From contig CBDCDZ010000004.1 in assembly GCA_965215565.1 (NCBI GenBank), forward strand, positions 1,408,001 through 1,472,000: 64,000 nucleotides of DNA, read 5' to 3'. A program made the translations under genes and the position numbers. Origin of the DNA: Trueperaceae bacterium. Its GTDB lineage: Bacteria; Deinococcota; Deinococci; Deinococcales; Trueperaceae. Below the pieces are notes generated by a model, which was given only the letters and a program-made list of their open reading frames with translations, had not been told where the DNA came from and did not search any database. Numbering within the stretch: the first letter of the stretch is position 1; the number at the start of each line of letters is the position of its first letter. Positions 3,656 to 8,751 of this stretch are shown here, one piece after another.

Positions 3656-3684
3656 TTGACACTCTACGTGAGGTTTGCTACACT
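3656..3684 (+). promoter_or_regulatory. Sigma70-type promoter of the Y RNA/tRNA-rsr-rtcB locus
   Basis: TTGACA-17-TACACT with extended -10 TG; predicted start falls at about 3691-3693, the 5' end of the first Y-like unit. Confidence 0.75.
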
Positions 3685-3692
3685 TCTAATTC

Positions 3693-3760
3693 GCGGACCG
3701 AAGAGACTTCGTTACCTGACTTTCCCTCAGACCTAACCCGAAGTTTCATGCCTCGTCCGC
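3693..3760 (+). ncRNA. Y RNA-like unit 1 (minimal, no tRNA body)
   Basis: gcggacCgaagagacttcgttacc...cgaagtttcatgcctcgtccgc: terminal bulged stem plus second helix and shared GTTA(T)C motif; pyrimidine-rich loop. Confidence 0.65.
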
Positions 3761-3978
3761 CAATCTTTGAGAAAGGGAGACACTCACCGCTTGTGAGGTC
3801 GTGGACGCTATGAATAAACATTTTGTACAACCCGAACACGGCTCCATCCTGAGCGCCGAGTCCACCTGGTTACTCCAGCGTGATTCGCGGCGAGCATAAG
3901 GATATTAAGGTGAGTTGGACCCTTCGAATACTCTTAACCCCTAAAAACTGAATAGTACTCACCTTAATTTGGAGCAAT

Positions 3979-4115
3979 AAACGGGCCGAAGATGTTTCGT
4001 TATCTTGACTATGGAGTCCTGCAGGTTCAAATCCTGCCTCATCTTCGGATGAGTGGCGGAACTGGTAGACGCGAGAGAGCTTAGCTCTTATCGAAACGTC
4101 ATCCCTTGCCCGTTT
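3979..4115 (+). ncRNA. Y RNA-like unit 2 (YrlA-like, permuted tRNA-Leu-like body)
   Basis: aaacgggcCga.../cttgcccgttt stem; inside: hairpin gact-atgg-agtc, T arm gcagg-ttcaaat-cctgc, closed acceptor ctcatc-ttcg-gatgag, Leu-type D arm tggcggaactggtagacgc, hairpin with cttag loop. Confidence 0.85.
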
Positions 4116-4231
4116 TTATAAGCAGTCCTACTGCATGTCTTGAAGACAATGCGAGTGCCACCACTGAATAAGCAGATCGGTGTGGCGCTTCTCATCTCAA
4201 AAATATGCGTAGGCAGAGGATACTTATGTCT

Positions 4232-4479
4232 GAAGGAGTTGCCTAAATGGGAGGGCGCAGCAAAAACATTCGGAGGCTGTCGCAAGCAGCGGGAGTACGA
4301 CTTGCTCTTTGGACGGGCGCATCGCGCCTAAACGTCTGAAGTGTGAGGTGCACGCCACAAGGTTTACAGATTGCACCTATAGCGGCCTACGGAAGTAGGT
4401 GGGACAAAGCAGCAAGGGAAGCAGGTTTTCCAAGGTGTGCTTTGCGTACTCTGTGCGGGTTCGAGTCCCGTCTCCTTCA
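4232..4479 (+). ncRNA. tRNA-like RNA with ~170-nt structured insertion in the anticodon arm
   Basis: Acceptor gaaggag/ctccttc-A, D arm gcctaaatgggagggc, T arm gcggg-ttcgagt-cccgt; about six hairpins between the D and T arms. Confidence 0.65.
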
Positions 4480-4532
4480 CTACTAGCACTGAGGTTTTTC
4501 GTCTTCTATTACGCTTATGGAGTTATTCGTCA

Positions 4533-4708
4533 GATGGACCGAAGAGGTTTCGTTGTCGCACCCGTCAGGATTATGGTTCGCGGCTGAGCGGTAGGGCGCT
4601 GCAACTCGAGCAGAACCAAGTAAGGCGAAAGGCTGCGCTTGCCCTAGTTGCAGAGAGGGTTCGAGTCCCCCAGTTCACAATCTAGCGGAGCTTCACACCT
4701 TGTCCATC
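4533..4708 (+). ncRNA. Y RNA-like unit 3 (unpermuted tRNA-like insert)
   Basis: gatggacCgaagaggtttcgttgtc.../cggagcttcacaccttgtccatc; inside, in linear order: D-like arm, long ctgcaact/agttgcag stem, T arm gggttcgagtccc. Confidence 0.7.
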
Positions 4709-4720
4709 CTTATTACGTTT

Positions 4721-4793
4721 GGTGCCATCGTTTAGCGGTCTAGGACTCGAGCCTTTCACGTTCGCAACAGGGGTTCAAATCCCCTTGGCACTA
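4721..4793 (+). tRNA. tRNA-Glu(TTC), CCA not encoded
   Basis: GGTGCCA/TGGCACT acceptor, anticodon arm CGAGC-CTTTCAC-GTTCG, T arm AGGGG-TTCAAAT-CCCCT. Confidence 0.88.
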
Positions 4794-4810
4794 TCAAACT
4801 CCTCGCTTAT

Positions 4811-4942
4811 ATGTGGGCCGAAGCGTGTCCGTTATCGACTTCTAATCGGCGGGTCGCGGGTTCGAATCCTGCCTGACACCATGCGTGGTGTCAGTAGCTC
4901 AGTGGCAGAGCAGCTTTCGGGCATACACAATCTTGCCCACAT
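4811..4942 (+). ncRNA. Y RNA-like unit 4 (permuted Lys/Arg-like tRNA body, TCT loop)
   Basis: atgtgggcCga/cttgcccacat; cga-cttctaa-tcg anticodon-like hairpin, T arm gcggg-ttcgaat-cctgc, closed acceptor ctgacacca-tgcg-tggtgtcag, D arm tagctcagtggcagagc. Confidence 0.88.
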
Positions 4943-4946
4943 CTTT

Positions 4947-5020
4947 AGCGCCATCGTCTAACGGCAAGACTCGAGACTTTGACTCTCGTAATAGAGGTTC
5001 GAATCCTCTTGGCGCTTCCA
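4947..5020 (+). tRNA. tRNA-Gln(TTG), atypical A1-U72/U73
   Basis: AGCGCCA/TGGCGCT-T-CCA, anticodon arm CGAGA-CTTTGAC-TCTCG, T arm AGAGG-TTCGAAT-CCTCT. Confidence 0.88.
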
Positions 5021-5034
5021 TATTCTTCTCGCCT

Positions 5035-5108
5035 GGTGCCATCGTCTAACGGCAGGATTCCTGGTTCTTACCCAGAGGATAGAGGTTCGAATCCTCTTGG
5101 CACCACCA
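5035..5108 (+). tRNA. tRNA with CTT (Lys) anticodon on a Glu/Gln-type body
   Basis: GGTGCCA/TGGCACC-A-CCA, anticodon arm CCTGG-TTCTTAC-CCAGA (C.A mismatch at top), T arm identical and D arm nearly identical to the neighbouring tRNA-Gln. Confidence 0.8.
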
Positions 5109-5109
5109 C

Positions 5110-5237
5110 AACTAAGCCGAAGGGCGTTCGTTATCGGTCAGAGCCCCCGAAAGGGGAGGTCGCTGGTTCAACTCCAGCCTAGCCGCAAGGCTCAGTAGCT
5201 CAGGGAAACAACGCGAATGTCCACCCCTTGCTTAGTT
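5110..5237 (+). ncRNA. Y RNA-like unit 5 (tRNA body opened in the D loop)
   Basis: aactaagcCga/cttgcttagtt; order inside: ggtcagagc (3' D half), cccc-gaaa-gggg, aggtc, T arm gctgg-ttcaact-ccagc, agcc-gcaa-ggct, tagctcag (5' D half). Confidence 0.85.
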
Positions 5238-5248
5238 TTTCTATCAAG

Positions 5249-5490
5249 AGCGAGCCGATTGGGTTTCGTTATCGCCTGTCACGCTGGCGGTGCAGGTTCA
5301 GGAGCCTTCAGCAGCAGATGCTAACTGGTTATAGATGCGCTGGGTTCATAACGGGATGCTACCCGTCGCGTGGACTGCTCCCGCTAGATGCTGATGACTC
5401 CTTCCCACCTAGCGAGAGCTAGTCGTCTAATGGTTAGGACACCAAGTCGGAAGCAATCTCGACATACCGGAGCCCGCCACCTTGCTCGCT
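5249..5490 (+). ncRNA. Y RNA-like unit 6 (permuted Asp-like body with ~110-nt T-loop insertion)
   Basis: agcgagcCga..tttcgttatc/cttgctcgct; gc-ctgtcac-gc loop, gcaggttca followed by ggag...ctcc insertion, ctagc-gaga-gctag, D arm gtctaatggttaggac. Confidence 0.72.
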
Positions 5491-5499
5491 TTATTTTGT

Positions 5500-5601
5500 A
5501 ACGGGCCGACGCAGTTCGGTTATCACAGGTTCGATTCTTGTTGGACCCATACGCGGGTCCACGCCTATGGAGGCAAGCTCGAGCTGTCCCTCTTGCCCGT
5601 T
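5500..5601 (+). ncRNA. Y RNA-like unit 7 (canonical YrlA architecture)
   Basis: aacgggcCga/cttgcccgtt; T arm acagg-ttcgatt-cttgt, closed acceptor tggaccc/gggtcca, small D arm gcct-atgg-aggc. Confidence 0.85.
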
Positions 5602-5656
5602 TATCTTACGCGGATAGGTCGCTGAGTTCTTCTCAAATCCTTTCACCTGTTCGCTT

Positions 5657-5792: not shown

Positions 5793-7385
5793 ATGCAAAA
5801 GTTCCATAAGCTCTTCTCACCCACCAAGACGGCGCAAAACCGTCCGCTGGATAGGTCGCAAATCAAGAATAGCGCGGGCGGGTACGTCTGGGCGCTGGAC
5901 CCGTGGAAGAGGCTCGAGCGCTTCCTCATCTTGGGGACGGAGGGCGGCACCTTTTACGTCCGCGAAGCGCCTCTTACGGTAGAGAACGCTGAAAACGTCG
6001 TCAAGCTCCTCACGGAAGATGGTGTCCGCGTCGTCGAGCGAGTCGTAGAGGTCAGCACGCAAGGTCGCGCCCACAAGAATGACCCGGCGCTCTTCGCCCT
6101 GGCGCTCGCGTTCACGGTAGGTGACGTGGACACAAAGCGTGCGGCGGAAGCGGCGCTGCCTAAGGTGGCGCGTACCGGCACGCACCTCTTCACCCTCATG
6201 ACCTACGTGAGCGAGATGCGCGGTTGGGGTCGTGTGCTGCGCCGTGCGGTGGCGGGTTGGTACGCCACTAGGGACGTGCAAGCCCTCGCGTACGGCGTGA
6301 CCAAGTACGCTCAGCGCGGCGGCTGGACGCACCGAGACGCCCTGCGTTTGGCGCACCCTAAGACGGATGACGCCGAGCGTGACGCGCTGTACCGTTACGT
6401 CACGGGGCACGGCGACAAGCTGAAGGAGGTGAGCGGCGAATGGGTTGACTACTTAAAGGCAGTCGAAGCAGTGAAGACCGAAACGGACGTGCAAGCGGTC
6501 GTGGACGCCATCACGCGCTACAACTTGCCGAGAGAGGTCATCCCCACCGAGATGCTCCGCAAGAGCGAAGTCTGGTCAGCGCTCCTGGCGCGTATGCCTA
6601 TGACTGCGACGATTCGCAACCTCGCGACGATGACCCGCGTCGGCTTGCTCACATCCATGAGTGAAGCTGCGGACGTTGTGACAGAGCGCATCACGGACGA
6701 AAAGGCGCTCCGCAAGACAAGGGTCCACCCCATCGCCATCCTCGCCGCGCTGATGACCTATAGCGCAGGGCGCGGCGCAAGAGGTAAGGGAACGTGGGAG
6801 CCCGTGCAAGAGGTTGTGAACGCACTCGACACCGCGTTCTACCGTTCGTTTGAGAACGTCGTGCCGATGGGCAAGCGCATCCTCATGGGGCTGGACGTAT
6901 CCGGCTCGATGACCTGGGGTGAAGTGGGTGGCGTACCCGGTCTGACGCCCCGCGTTGCAAGCGCTGCGCTCGCGCTGGTCACGGCGGCGACTGAACCTAA
7001 GCACACATTCATGGCGTTCTCGCATGAACTCGTGCCCGTCAAGATTTCGCCGCGTCAACGGCTGGACGACGTGGTGAAGCAACTGGACAGGATGCCTTTC
7101 GGCGGGACGGACGCCTCGCTGCCGATGCTTTACGCGGCGCAGAAGGGGCTCGAGGTTGACGCCTTCGTCGTCTTGACCGACAGCGAGACTTGGTTCGGCA
7201 AGCAGCACCCTGCCGAAGCGTTGCTCGAGTACCGCCGCAAGACGGGCATCCCTGCCAAGCTCATCGTCGTCGGGATGCTTGGCAACCGTTTCACGATTGC
7301 GGACCCGTTTGATGCTGGCATGTTGGACGTGGTCGGGTTCAGCACGGATATACCCACAGTTATTGCGGATTTCATTCGCAAATAG
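5793..7385 (+). CDS. rsr: Ro60 orthologue (TROVE + vWA domain RNA-binding protein)
   Basis: NSAGGYV, RLERFLILGTEGGTFY, KY.QRGGWTHRD.LRLAHP, MPMTATIRNL, DVSGSM (MIDAS), TDSETW, GMLDVVGF; GGAGGT RBS. Confidence 0.97.
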   Translation: MQKFHKLFSPTKTAQNRPLDRSQIKNSAGGYVWALDPWKRLERFLILGTEGGTFYVREAPLTVENAENVVKLLTEDGVRVVERVVEVSTQGRAHKNDPALFALALAFTVGDVDTKRAAEAALPKVARTGTHLFTLMTYVSEMRGWGRVLRRAVAGWYATRDVQALAYGVTKYAQRGGWTHRDALRLAHPKTDDAERDALYRYVTGHGDKLKEVSGEWVDYLKAVEAVKTETDVQAVVDAITRYNLPREVIPTEMLRKSEVWSALLARMPMTATIRNLATMTRVGLLTSMSEAADVVTERITDEKALRKTRVHPIAILAALMTYSAGRGARGKGTWEPVQEVVNALDTAFYRSFENVVPMGKRILMGLDVSGSMTWGEVGGVPGLTPRVASAALALVTAATEPKHTFMAFSHELVPVKISPRQRLDDVVKQLDRMPFGGTDASLPMLYAAQKGLEVDAFVVLTDSETWFGKQHPAEALLEYRRKTGIPAKLIVVGMLGNRFTIADPFDAGMLDVVGFSTDIPTVIADFIRK

Positions 7386-7533: not shown

Positions 7534-8751
7534 ATGATGCAAGTAGATAGCATTTCTGTCTTCGGTCAACACGACGAAAAGACGTTGAAGCAGCTTAAAG
7601 ATGTAGCGACGAGGGCTGAGAAAGTCGCCCTCATGTCAGACGGACACTTGGGCTACATCATGCCCATCGGCGGCGTTGCAGCGTACGACAATAAGGTGTC
7701 TGTCGCAGGAATTGGATTTGATATCGCGTGCGGCAATGCCGCGATTAAAACGGATTTGACCCTGGGGCAACTCGAGCCCAACCTCACCGCGCTAGCCGAC
7801 GAAATCGCTGAGGTCATCTCCTTTGGCGTCGGACGCAAAAACACCTCAGATGACGCATCTGTAAACGATCCCCTTTTTGAGGACGCTGCTTGGGAAATAG
7901 TTCCAACGAAGAAGGGCGTGCGCCAGCGTCTCTTGAACAAGGCGCGTAACCAGCTTGGCACGGTAGGCTCGGGCAATCACTATGTGGACGTCTTTGCAGA
8001 CGAGGAAGGCGTGATTTGGGTTGGGGTGCACTTCGGCTCTCGCGGCTTCGGTCACACTATCGCCTCCACCTTCATGGCACTTCATCAGGGCGGCACCTGG
8101 AGCGATAAGGGTAAAGAAACCGAGGCACTTCTCAGCTTGGACGACGAGTTGGGCAAGGATTACTGGGCGCTCATGACGCTCGCGGGGCGCTACGCTTACG
8201 TCGGGCGCGAGTGGGTCGCGCGCAAGGTCGTGGAGATTTTGGGCGGGACGGAAAGAGAACTCGTCCACAACCACCACAATTACGCTTGGAAAGAGGTGCA
8301 TGACGAGCGTGAACTGGTTGTGGTGCGCAAAGGGGCGACGCCTGCGTTTCCCGGACAGAAGGGTTTCGTCGGCGGCAGCATGGGCGATGACGCTGTCATC
8401 TTACAAGGCCGAACGGATGCAGATGACGGGACAAAAGCCAAACAAGAAGCCGCCCTCTACTCCACCGTGCACGGCGCAGGTCGCGTGATGAGCCGCACGC
8501 GGGCGGCGGGTAAATGGGACTATAAGCGTAAGGTCCGCAAGACCGAAGGGCTGATTTCGCAAGCGATGATGAAGGCGTGGCTCGCCGAAAAAGAGGTCAT
8601 CTTGCGCGGCGGCGGCTTGGACGAAGCGCCGCAAGCCTACCGCCGTTTGCCTGACGTATTGGCGTCGCAGGGCGCGACTGTGGAGGTCTTACATACGCTC
8701 ACGCCGCTCATCGTGGTGATGGCGGGGGCGAATGAGTTTGACCCATATTAA
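7534..8751 (+). CDS. rtcB: RtcB family RNA ligase
   Basis: DGHLGY..PIGG, GFDIACGN, GSGNHY, HFGSRGFG, HNHHN, VRKGATPA, HGAGRVMSR, DEAPQAYR motifs. Confidence 0.96.
   Translation: MMQVDSISVFGQHDEKTLKQLKDVATRAEKVALMSDGHLGYIMPIGGVAAYDNKVSVAGIGFDIACGNAAIKTDLTLGQLEPNLTALADEIAEVISFGVGRKNTSDDASVNDPLFEDAAWEIVPTKKGVRQRLLNKARNQLGTVGSGNHYVDVFADEEGVIWVGVHFGSRGFGHTIASTFMALHQGGTWSDKGKETEALLSLDDELGKDYWALMTLAGRYAYVGREWVARKVVEILGGTERELVHNHHNYAWKEVHDERELVVVRKGATPAFPGQKGFVGGSMGDDAVILQGRTDADDGTKAKQEAALYSTVHGAGRVMSRTRAAGKWDYKRKVRKTEGLISQAMMKAWLAEKEVILRGGGLDEAPQAYRRLPDVLASQGATVEVLHTLTPLIVVMAGANEFDPY

Follow-up and report, generated by a model that had tools for sequence, protein, structure and literature searches.

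What kind of RNA is encoded at positions 4232..4479 (+) of the window (the whole 64,000-nt stretch of DNA that was analysed), where the arms of a tRNA enclose a long structured segment? The earlier note left two possibilities, a new class of tRNA-processed non-coding RNA or an intron-like tRNA precursor whose halves would be joined by a ligase such as the neighbouring RtcB. The first is supported by numerous homologues, a covarying structure and the lack of an Rfam model, with RNase P as the presumed processing enzyme. The RNA belongs to a large, widespread and apparently undescribed family.

The RNA and its parts

The gene extends from the acceptor 5' end to the discriminator A73 (A4479); CCA is not encoded, and CUA follows the discriminator. 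An acceptor stem, D arm and T arm enclose a structured interior, as the earlier note had described. The acceptor 5' strand (4232..4238, +) pairs with 4472-4478 at 7/7 positions, starting with G1-C72, A2-U71 and A3-U70. The D arm (4241..4256, +) carries GG in its loop and an A15 that matches U48 (4454) as the 15-48 tertiary pair, and the T arm (4455..4471, +) has a canonical T loop. The folding z-score of the whole RNA is -3.26, with 1/200 shuffles equally stable. Public DNA contigs (two runs, possibly of the source sample) match the stretch and contain no joint that skips the interior. The placement of the interior had to be revised, however. It had been taken to replace the anticodon loop, but a stem-loop occupies that position (4257..4280, +; 4257-4261 pairing with 4276-4280 around a 14-nt A-rich loop without U33), and the large domain lies 3' of it, at the variable arm.

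The variable-arm domain is closed by a base helix (4292..4298, +, with 4446-4452) that is complete (7/7) in the window and in L009, a homologue of 82% identity, with one two-sided change. It is followed by a lineage-specific side hairpin (4307..4341, +), which most members lack and which shows 4 plus 2 two-sided changes relative to L009, and by helix P5, whose 5' strand (4350..4362, +) pairs 4350-4356 with 4434-4440 and GG 4361-4362 with CC 4430-4431. Next comes a conserved core. Its 5' side (4363..4378, +) comprises the linker UU-R/G-C/A-R-G-A, a GC/GC helix, a 1x3 internal loop and a CCU/AGG helix, and its 3' side (4415..4431, +) reads AGG-GAA-GC, then the 3' strand of a pseudoknot and CC; in the 1x3 loop, A4375 stands opposite G4418-A4419-A4420. 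Between the two sides lies a distal subdomain (4379..4414, +) made of a 2-bp helix (4382-4383 with 4412-4413), a hairpin (4385-4400) and an A-rich strand, which is kept within one subfamily, whereas many of the phage members have a different fold in its place. The pseudoknot 5' strand, AAAAC (4263..4267, +), lies in the anticodon-position loop and pairs with GUUUU at 4425-4429. Our core model R1 matches 4358-4433 at 73 bits and nothing else in the window significantly.

The hairpins proposed from the single sequence fared unequally. The closest homologue has two-sided changes in those formed by ggacg/cgtct, gcgc/gcgc and cctac/gtagg. The sequences gagtac/ttgctc, aggtgca/tgcacct and ggaagc/ttttcc could pair in the window but do not belong to the family's fold. 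Upstream of the GCACCT segment, 2/56 members have a full 7/7 partner, and a 5/5 GGAAG hairpin is present in 24/56; the GCACCT and GGAAG bases instead pair over long range, with compensatory changes. A gctg/cagc helix competes with the anticodon-position stem, and the comparison of the window with L009 is compatible with either.

Homologues and conservation of the tRNA body

The search for homologues that the earlier note had proposed returned many, with covarying structure. A metagenome scan yielded at least 120 matches. Among 176 core matches, 136 had a T arm and acceptor and 40 were dropped as chance or truncated, which left 110 unique sequences; four were removed, one for an insert in the D loop and three because their 5' end was misplaced, giving 56 representatives of 164-322 nt at 85% identity. 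The first patterns fixed CCTATAG and GCAAGG, and so hid covariation and overstated G3-U70 (32/56). A pattern without these two motifs found 33 viral stretches, of which 29 score with R1, a model that spans the 77 core positions in one subfamily and loses sensitivity elsewhere in the family. Looser viral patterns gave either no matches or 11 chance matches in coding DNA. The combined set comprises 82 mostly non-redundant members of about 165-320 nt.

Across 47 of the 56 representatives, the 29 named pairs are paired in 90.0% of cases (71.3% when shuffled), with a covariation of 0.50 against 0.155; the 'two-sided' changes at pair 27-70 stem in part from a shifted alignment of five related sequences of family f5. 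Within this alignment the acceptor is paired in 99.4% of cells, with two-sided changes at 7/7 pairs, the T arm is paired in 100% of cells, with two-sided changes at 4/5 pairs, and the D stem covaries. GG is found in the D-loop region of 56/56 members. The 15-48 pair (A-U or G-C) is present in 25/38 members with canonical D-arm numbering, against 13.9 in shuffles and with 0/10000 permutations reaching this value, a figure that, like our other permutation figures, is not a probability because the members are related. An independent viral set has the pair in 17/18. Retention of the 15-48 pair argues that the tRNA elbow is under selection. Comparison shows that the family keeps the whole tRNA L-shape, that is, the acceptor, the D/T elbow and the 15-48 pair.

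Carriers include Deinococcota, Fibrobacteria, Betaproteobacteria, metagenomes and phages, among them cultured Ralstonia and Streptomyces phages in which the RNA is unannotated. Within the phylum of the window, BLAST found the RNA in 14/364 genomes and the core pattern in 13/364, with 0 control matches; R1 added a divergent form in 10/19 genomes of family f5. R1 also found it in 3/121 genomes from the phylum of the Fibrobacteria record and in 1/151 from the family of the Variovorax record. A genome collection gave 22 matches, 14 of them chance and 8 judged real by eye (three named Deinococcus species, Deinococcus sp., Variovorax, Achromobacter, Fibrobacteria and one uncultured), and the order-level relatives have copies of the same subfamily as the named Deinococcus records, from which we take the window to be part of a probable Deinococcales genome. 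No plasmid matched the window RNA as query; four Variovorax megaplasmids matched the Achromobacter copy. One viral stretch matches 27 Streptomyces phage records, 14 of them over at least 80% of its length, none with an RNA annotation there. The RNA lies unannotated amid tRNA genes in the cultured phages RSP15 (a Ralstonia phage, in a gap beside tRNA genes), Gilson, Satis and Alone3.

Two records, L072 (Deinococcus yunweiensis) and L015, hold a member with about 72 nt extra inside the D loop. At about 1500-1620 of L237, right after a coding stretch and upstream of rtcB, there is a 5'-truncated member (core and T arm only, with a CAU/AUG variant of the short core helix), which an integration event may have left behind.

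An RNA without function, or a selfish one, that simply travels with tRNA islands (as an integration target or a decayed element, for instance) could show such a patchy distribution (13/364 by pattern, 1/151), could be missing from the syntenic locus of the same genus, as this RNA is, and could leave a truncated copy like that in L237. Set against this, two-sided changes run throughout the RNA, across phyla and phages, and it is single-copy in every genome searched, so that we regard a passenger as highly improbable.

The anticodon-position loop and the variable-arm core

The arms follow each other in the normal order (D, anticodon, variable, T) in the alignment. After the D arm, 53/56 members have a 4-5-bp stem with an A-rich loop of 6-20 nt; this loop has 7 nt in 3/53 and a U at the 33-equivalent position in 4/53. 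The large domain starts 3' of this hairpin and rejoins just before the T stem, which identifies it as an insertion in the variable arm. The loop sequence AAAACG pairs with the strand 3' of GGAAGC, with 4.43 Watson-Crick pairs between cognate partners against 3.82 +/- 0.11 between permuted ones (0/5000), the register being picked identically for both. Two-sided changes occur at 4/5 pairs of this pseudoknot in the aligned members, and 22/23 independent viral members have at least four Watson-Crick pairs. Comparison among members thus shows a variable-arm domain of 90-250 nt that turns back, its CGUUU strand pairing with the AAAACG loop at the anticodon position.

The core common to all members consists of the linker UUGCRGA, a GC/GC helix, the 1x3 A/GAA loop and a short compensated helix, and holds about 25 near-invariant nucleotides, including invariant unpaired purines. 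Among 80 members the first helix is GC/GC in 73 and GA/UC in 6, and the second is CCU/AGG in 55 and CUG/CAG in 3, with others; a CAU/AUG variant was also found. The fold distal to the core differs by subfamily. A length correlation (rho 0.27, p 0.04, among related sequences) hints weakly at an ENE-like U.A-U triple helix formed by the linker UU on the pseudoknot.

Two outside likenesses of the core were considered. A genome stretch that resembles it is, we take it, domain I of 23S rRNA; this resemblance was dropped because divergent members change the bases concerned in compensating pairs. The A/GAA loop resembles the B12 box of cobalamin riboswitches, a likeness that no Rfam match on the RNA backs.

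Comparison with known RNA classes

The Rfam scan assigned the window RNA to no family at gathering score; its sole weak hit was tmRNA at 4416-4482 (12.2 bits against 47). The RNAs of 20 metagenomic and 20 viral homologous loci likewise matched no family at gathering score. Across the window and the 40 loci, tmRNA (RF00023) reached at best 12-23 bits against 47, at the ends only. The family shares with tmRNA, including the forms without a coding sequence (PMC11915505, in excerpt), its tRNA-like ends, a large pseudoknotted interior and residence in phage tRNA arrays, and about half of its members, the window copy not among them, have the tmRNA alanine set G3-U70/A73. It differs in having a true, covarying D stem where tmRNA has a D loop without a stem, a hairpin at the anticodon position (53/56), where tmRNA relies on SmpB for the missing arm, an interior carried on the variable arm and a length of 165-320 nt. 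It also has no conserved tag frame, a tag-like frame being found in 8/56 members (smallest members 164 nt) under a loose rule without a control, and it coexists with ordinary tmRNA.

The bacterial Y RNAs of the YrlA type (RF02553; PMC4201824) are likewise non-coding tRNA mimics encoded beside rsr and rtcB. They consist of a circularly permuted tRNA module with a Ro60-binding closing stem that bears GNCGAA. The family RNA, in contrast, has the normal tRNA order and free acceptor ends, lacks the Ro motif and is also found in genomes and phages that have no Ro60. The absence of a Ro stem noted earlier holds, since the window RNA has no G.CGAA and five neighbours have the motif; RF02553 hits in the window fall on neighbours only, none on 4232-4479.

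Phage T4 RnaC and RnaD (species 1 and 2) are, by record annotation, also stable non-decoding RNAs in a phage tRNA cluster. They are shorter, at 139 and 119 nt, and the core model, run at E up to 2, matched nothing in the T4 tRNA region, with the core motifs absent from RnaC and RnaD. Allo-tRNAs and other tRNAs with long variable arms, as presented in excerpts of PMC5389517, resemble the family in their enlarged variable arm, non-canonical form and place in polycistrons, and the cloverleaf and L-shape contacts of such tRNAs (D-loop GG, T loop, 15-48) are present in it. Allo-tRNAs have an 8/4 or 9/3 fold with a working anticodon, whereas the family RNA has a 7/5 fold, its loop is locked and its variable domain is several-fold longer.

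The tRNA genes interrupted by group I introns (RF00028) also have common tRNA ends around a structured segment of 100-250 nt, and perfect tRNA ends, a location in tRNA arrays and an ARAGORN forced intron call in 33/59 members would all suit a precursor, with a degenerate group I or RtcB-ligated intron, that yields a normal tRNA. The details do not. Neither the window RNA, where the earlier note had already seen no group I core, nor the 40 homologous loci gave an RF00028 match on the RNA, although the same scan detected a neighbouring intron at L155. The forced calls start anywhere between positions 29 and 38, and their anticodons are scattered (Ala in 3/33), with no consistent product; the window copy would become a His tRNA and L009 a Stop. 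There is no U33 exon or 7-nt loop (6-20 nt instead), the insert lies outside the anticodon loop, and the putative exon loop covaries with the interior. Complete phages carry the RNA without RtcB, which is found in 1/5 phage records. We therefore rejected the spliced pre-tRNA and hold any intron reading to be very unlikely; what remains of the proposed link to RtcB is a shared operon, and not splicing.

The literature search, core motifs included, found no description of the family; subscription papers and bioRxiv supplements lay outside its scope. The family does not appear in excerpts of PMC5389517, PMC11915505 and PMC10690425, no motif match was found in seven supplementary files of the last of these, and bioRxiv 10.64898/2026.09.15.751765 has no occurrence of tRNA or RtcB. 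Since files 1 and 2 of PMC10690425 were outside the motif search, the family may be among its 10,006 unnamed candidates. We see a small but real chance that it has already been described somewhere.

Acceptor identity

According to excerpts of PMC9976931, G3-U70 is the main determinant for AlaRS, and G1-C72, G2-C71, G3-U70 and A73 form the bacterial alanine signature. The earlier remark that alanine identity is missing is right for the window copy, which has A3-U70, and wrong for the family, where the 3:70 pair is GU in 39, GC in 16, CG in 12, UA in 9 and AU in 5 of 82 members. A73 is present in 69/82 and an encoded CCA in 35/82. G.U is concentrated at 3:70 (34/59, against 0-4 at other acceptor positions), and the four alanine elements occur together in 30/59, over 26 different acceptor sequences. 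The less biased search returned G3-U70 in 4/24 and an encoded CCA in 4/24 (one with a misplaced 5' end). We read alanine identity as a subfamily trait that probably lets about half of the members be charged, without being required.

Could charged members, mostly with alanine, act as self-decoding RNAs in ribosome rescue? They would enter the A site with EF-Tu on ribosomes stalled by a lost tRNA, the duplex between loop and strand would replace the codon-anticodon helix, and the nascent chain would be taken over without SmpB or a tag frame. Pseudoknot I of the dicistrovirus IRES stands in for a codon-anticodon helix in this way. The full alanine set over so many acceptor sequences and a pseudoknot exactly at the anticodon position speak for such a role, as does the existence of tmRNA forms without a coding sequence (PMC11915505, in excerpt). 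The low G3-U70 count of the less biased search and its absence from the window copy speak against it, and ordinary tmRNA is present both in the same phage array (Gilson) and in the genome of the window. Moreover, helices close off the pairing strand at either end, and the decoding site would probably be crowded by the domain. On balance we think a rescue function rather unlikely.

Genomic context

The RNA lies in a cluster of about 2 kb (3692..5605, +) with several Y-type RNAs and tRNA-Glu, -Gln and -Lys; its borders were read by eye, except for Rfam and ARAGORN hits. Ro motifs start at 3696, 3984, 4537, 4816 and 5504, and YrlA-like matches cover 4814-4942 and 4020-4072. A sigma-70-like promoter with an extended -10 (3656..3684, +; 10/12 matches, 2 such sites being found against 1.1 expected) heads the cluster, which is likely transcribed as a polycistron. 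Downstream follow rsr (5793..7385, +), which encodes Ro60 with TROVE and vWA_Ro60 domains, and the RNA ligase gene rtcB (7534..8751, +).

Several neighbours of the RNA have unusual features of their own. At 4533-4712 of the window, a second tRNA-like body (about 4575-4680) with an anticodon-loop insert of about 45 nt sits inside a Ro-type terminal stem; the same-genus locus has no such body. At about 5262-5490, a Y-type RNA carries a T-loop insert of about 110 nt (5290-5405) that the same-genus copy lacks, and L009 has a similar insert in the T loop of a tRNA-Gln (about 835-915, -), which together suggest a small mobile or self-removing element; its pattern matched only coding DNA in viral contigs. 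Structured-looking stretches without an Rfam hit lie between the Y RNAs at 4120-4230 and 3780-3970, the latter conserved in the same-genus genome G001.

Elsewhere, members often lie among tRNA genes. A same-strand tRNA lies within 500 nt in 39/56 members and within 100 nt in 30/56, and within 500 nt in 18/24 viral members; in Satis the RNA stands between tRNA-Arg and tRNA-Asp. Deinococcales of family f5 (L003-L007, L271-L279) have large tRNA arrays, just upstream of rsr in 6/10 carriers. In L155, a family member within a tRNA array is followed closely downstream by the group I intron mentioned above (1-188, -; 59.7 bits).

Repair genes are a second setting. In the window and L009 the RNA precedes rsr, in a soil clade it is flanked by rsr and rtcB, and in 6/10 f5 carriers it lies 2-4 kb upstream of a Ro60 vWA match. 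L063 has the order divergent rtcR, sigma-54-type promoter (by eye), RNA, rsr, rtcB, and L236 the order rtcR, promoter, RNA, rtcB; in both, no RNA other than the family member was found behind the RtcR-type promoter. In the soil clade, which includes L099, a SEC-C ORF repeatedly lies immediately upstream of the RNA; in L099 a long run of Y-type and tRNA-like RNAs, mostly below Rfam cut-offs, lies between rsr and the family RNA (400-1700). Ro60, RtcB or RtcR genes are near the RNA in 7/39 representatives with at least 1.5 kb of DNA, and no repair gene was found within about 1.2 kb of the 24 viral members. No Ro60 match was found in 5/12 carriers of the Deinococcaceae-type family f2, where the RNA stands alone. 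Among five phage records (four complete), RtcB is present in 1/5 and TROVE in 0/5; Gilson encodes an RNA ligase and a PNK within 3 kb of the RNA, and Alone3 a Ro-like gene within 3 kb.

Possible functions

The family is real, apparently undescribed and new in its architecture; what it does can be suggested from where its genes lie. RtcR operons are induced by cleaved tRNA (PMC7790460, in excerpt), and phage tRNA arrays with RNA ligase and PNK relate to tRNA damage (parts of PMC4810235). Both habitats of the RNA thus concern tRNA damage, which leads us to a decoy or scaffold; a decoy role has also been proposed for YrlA (PMC7790460, in excerpt). The RNA would be a stand-alone, stable, non-decoding tRNA mimic in the tRNA-damage response. 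We favour this reading while giving it slightly less than an even chance.

RNase P and 3' trimming would release the RNA from polycistrons of tRNAs or Y RNAs, and CCA would then be added, with no splicing. The 7-bp acceptor and T arm make RNase P processing plausible, and for YrlA of M. smegmatis maturation from a polycistron by RNase P and CCA addition has been shown (PMC4201824, in excerpt). When tRNAs come under attack, the RNA would be expressed together with spare tRNAs or with the Ro60, RtcB and RtcR repair genes. Offering a tRNA elbow and acceptor with the anticodon position shielded, it may occupy or dock tRNA-handling proteins, candidate partners being anticodon nucleases, toxins that act on tRNA ends, sensors and repair enzymes. 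Several observations sit poorly with a decoy, however. A plain decoy has no obvious need for about 25 near-invariant core nucleotides or for G.U pairs concentrated at 3:70, and the sparse repair genes around representatives and viral members, the Deinococcaceae-type carriers with no Ro60 match and the phage records short of TROVE and RtcB also count against it.

The tRNA body might alternatively serve only processing and stability, with the pseudoknotted core binding a ligand or protein unrelated to tRNA mimicry; its need for RNase P and CCA would then explain why the RNA rides in tRNA operons. Acceptor identity does vary widely at 3:70 whereas the core residues hardly change, and several Deinococcus genomes carry the RNA by itself. 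Yet the full elbow, 15-48 pair included, is kept beyond what processing needs, and the RNA recurs at RtcR/Ro60/RtcB loci of unrelated phyla. We judge this division of labour unlikely, though it deserves serious weight.

The core could also be a ribozyme. Self-cleavage would leave a 5' half with a 2',3'-cyclic phosphate, the ligand of RtcR, and RtcB would reseal the RNA, which would act as a signal or timer. RtcR is indeed activated by 5' tRNA halves with a cyclic phosphate (PMC7790460, in excerpt), the core folds compactly into a pseudoknot whose unpaired purines are invariant, and in L063 and L236 no other RNA was found behind the RtcR-type promoter, with rtcB downstream. Rfam ribozyme models (hammerhead, HDV-like, twister and others), however, have no match on the RNA in the window or the 40 homologous loci, many carriers are complete phages without RtcB, and the alignment shows no conserved cleavage site. 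A ribozyme therefore seems to us distinctly improbable.

Compared with the tRNA mimic of the damage response, a broader proposal is more speculative and, in our estimate, improbable without being far-fetched: that the family is a class of translation-stress RNA, either an aminoacylated tRNA mimic with its own codon in cis or a ribozyme core that produces the RtcR signal. If so, it would enter stalled ribosomes or neutralize tRNA-targeting defences without SmpB or an mRNA, and would give phages and RtcR operons a means of countering tRNA-cleaving immunity.

Large conserved classes of non-coding RNA are rare finds, and this family spans several phyla and many phages. We found no earlier description of its architecture, a tRNA in which a variable-arm domain locks the anticodon loop, and it is unannotated in Streptomyces phages Gilson, Satis and Alone3, in Ralstonia phage RSP15 and in named Deinococcus species. 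The family bears on the roles of phage tRNA clusters beyond codon supply and on the question of which RNAs the RtcR/Ro60/RtcB operon has as partners or substrates. As it is the only RNA found in the RtcR-type operon of two genomes, the question of the operon's partner can be tested directly there.
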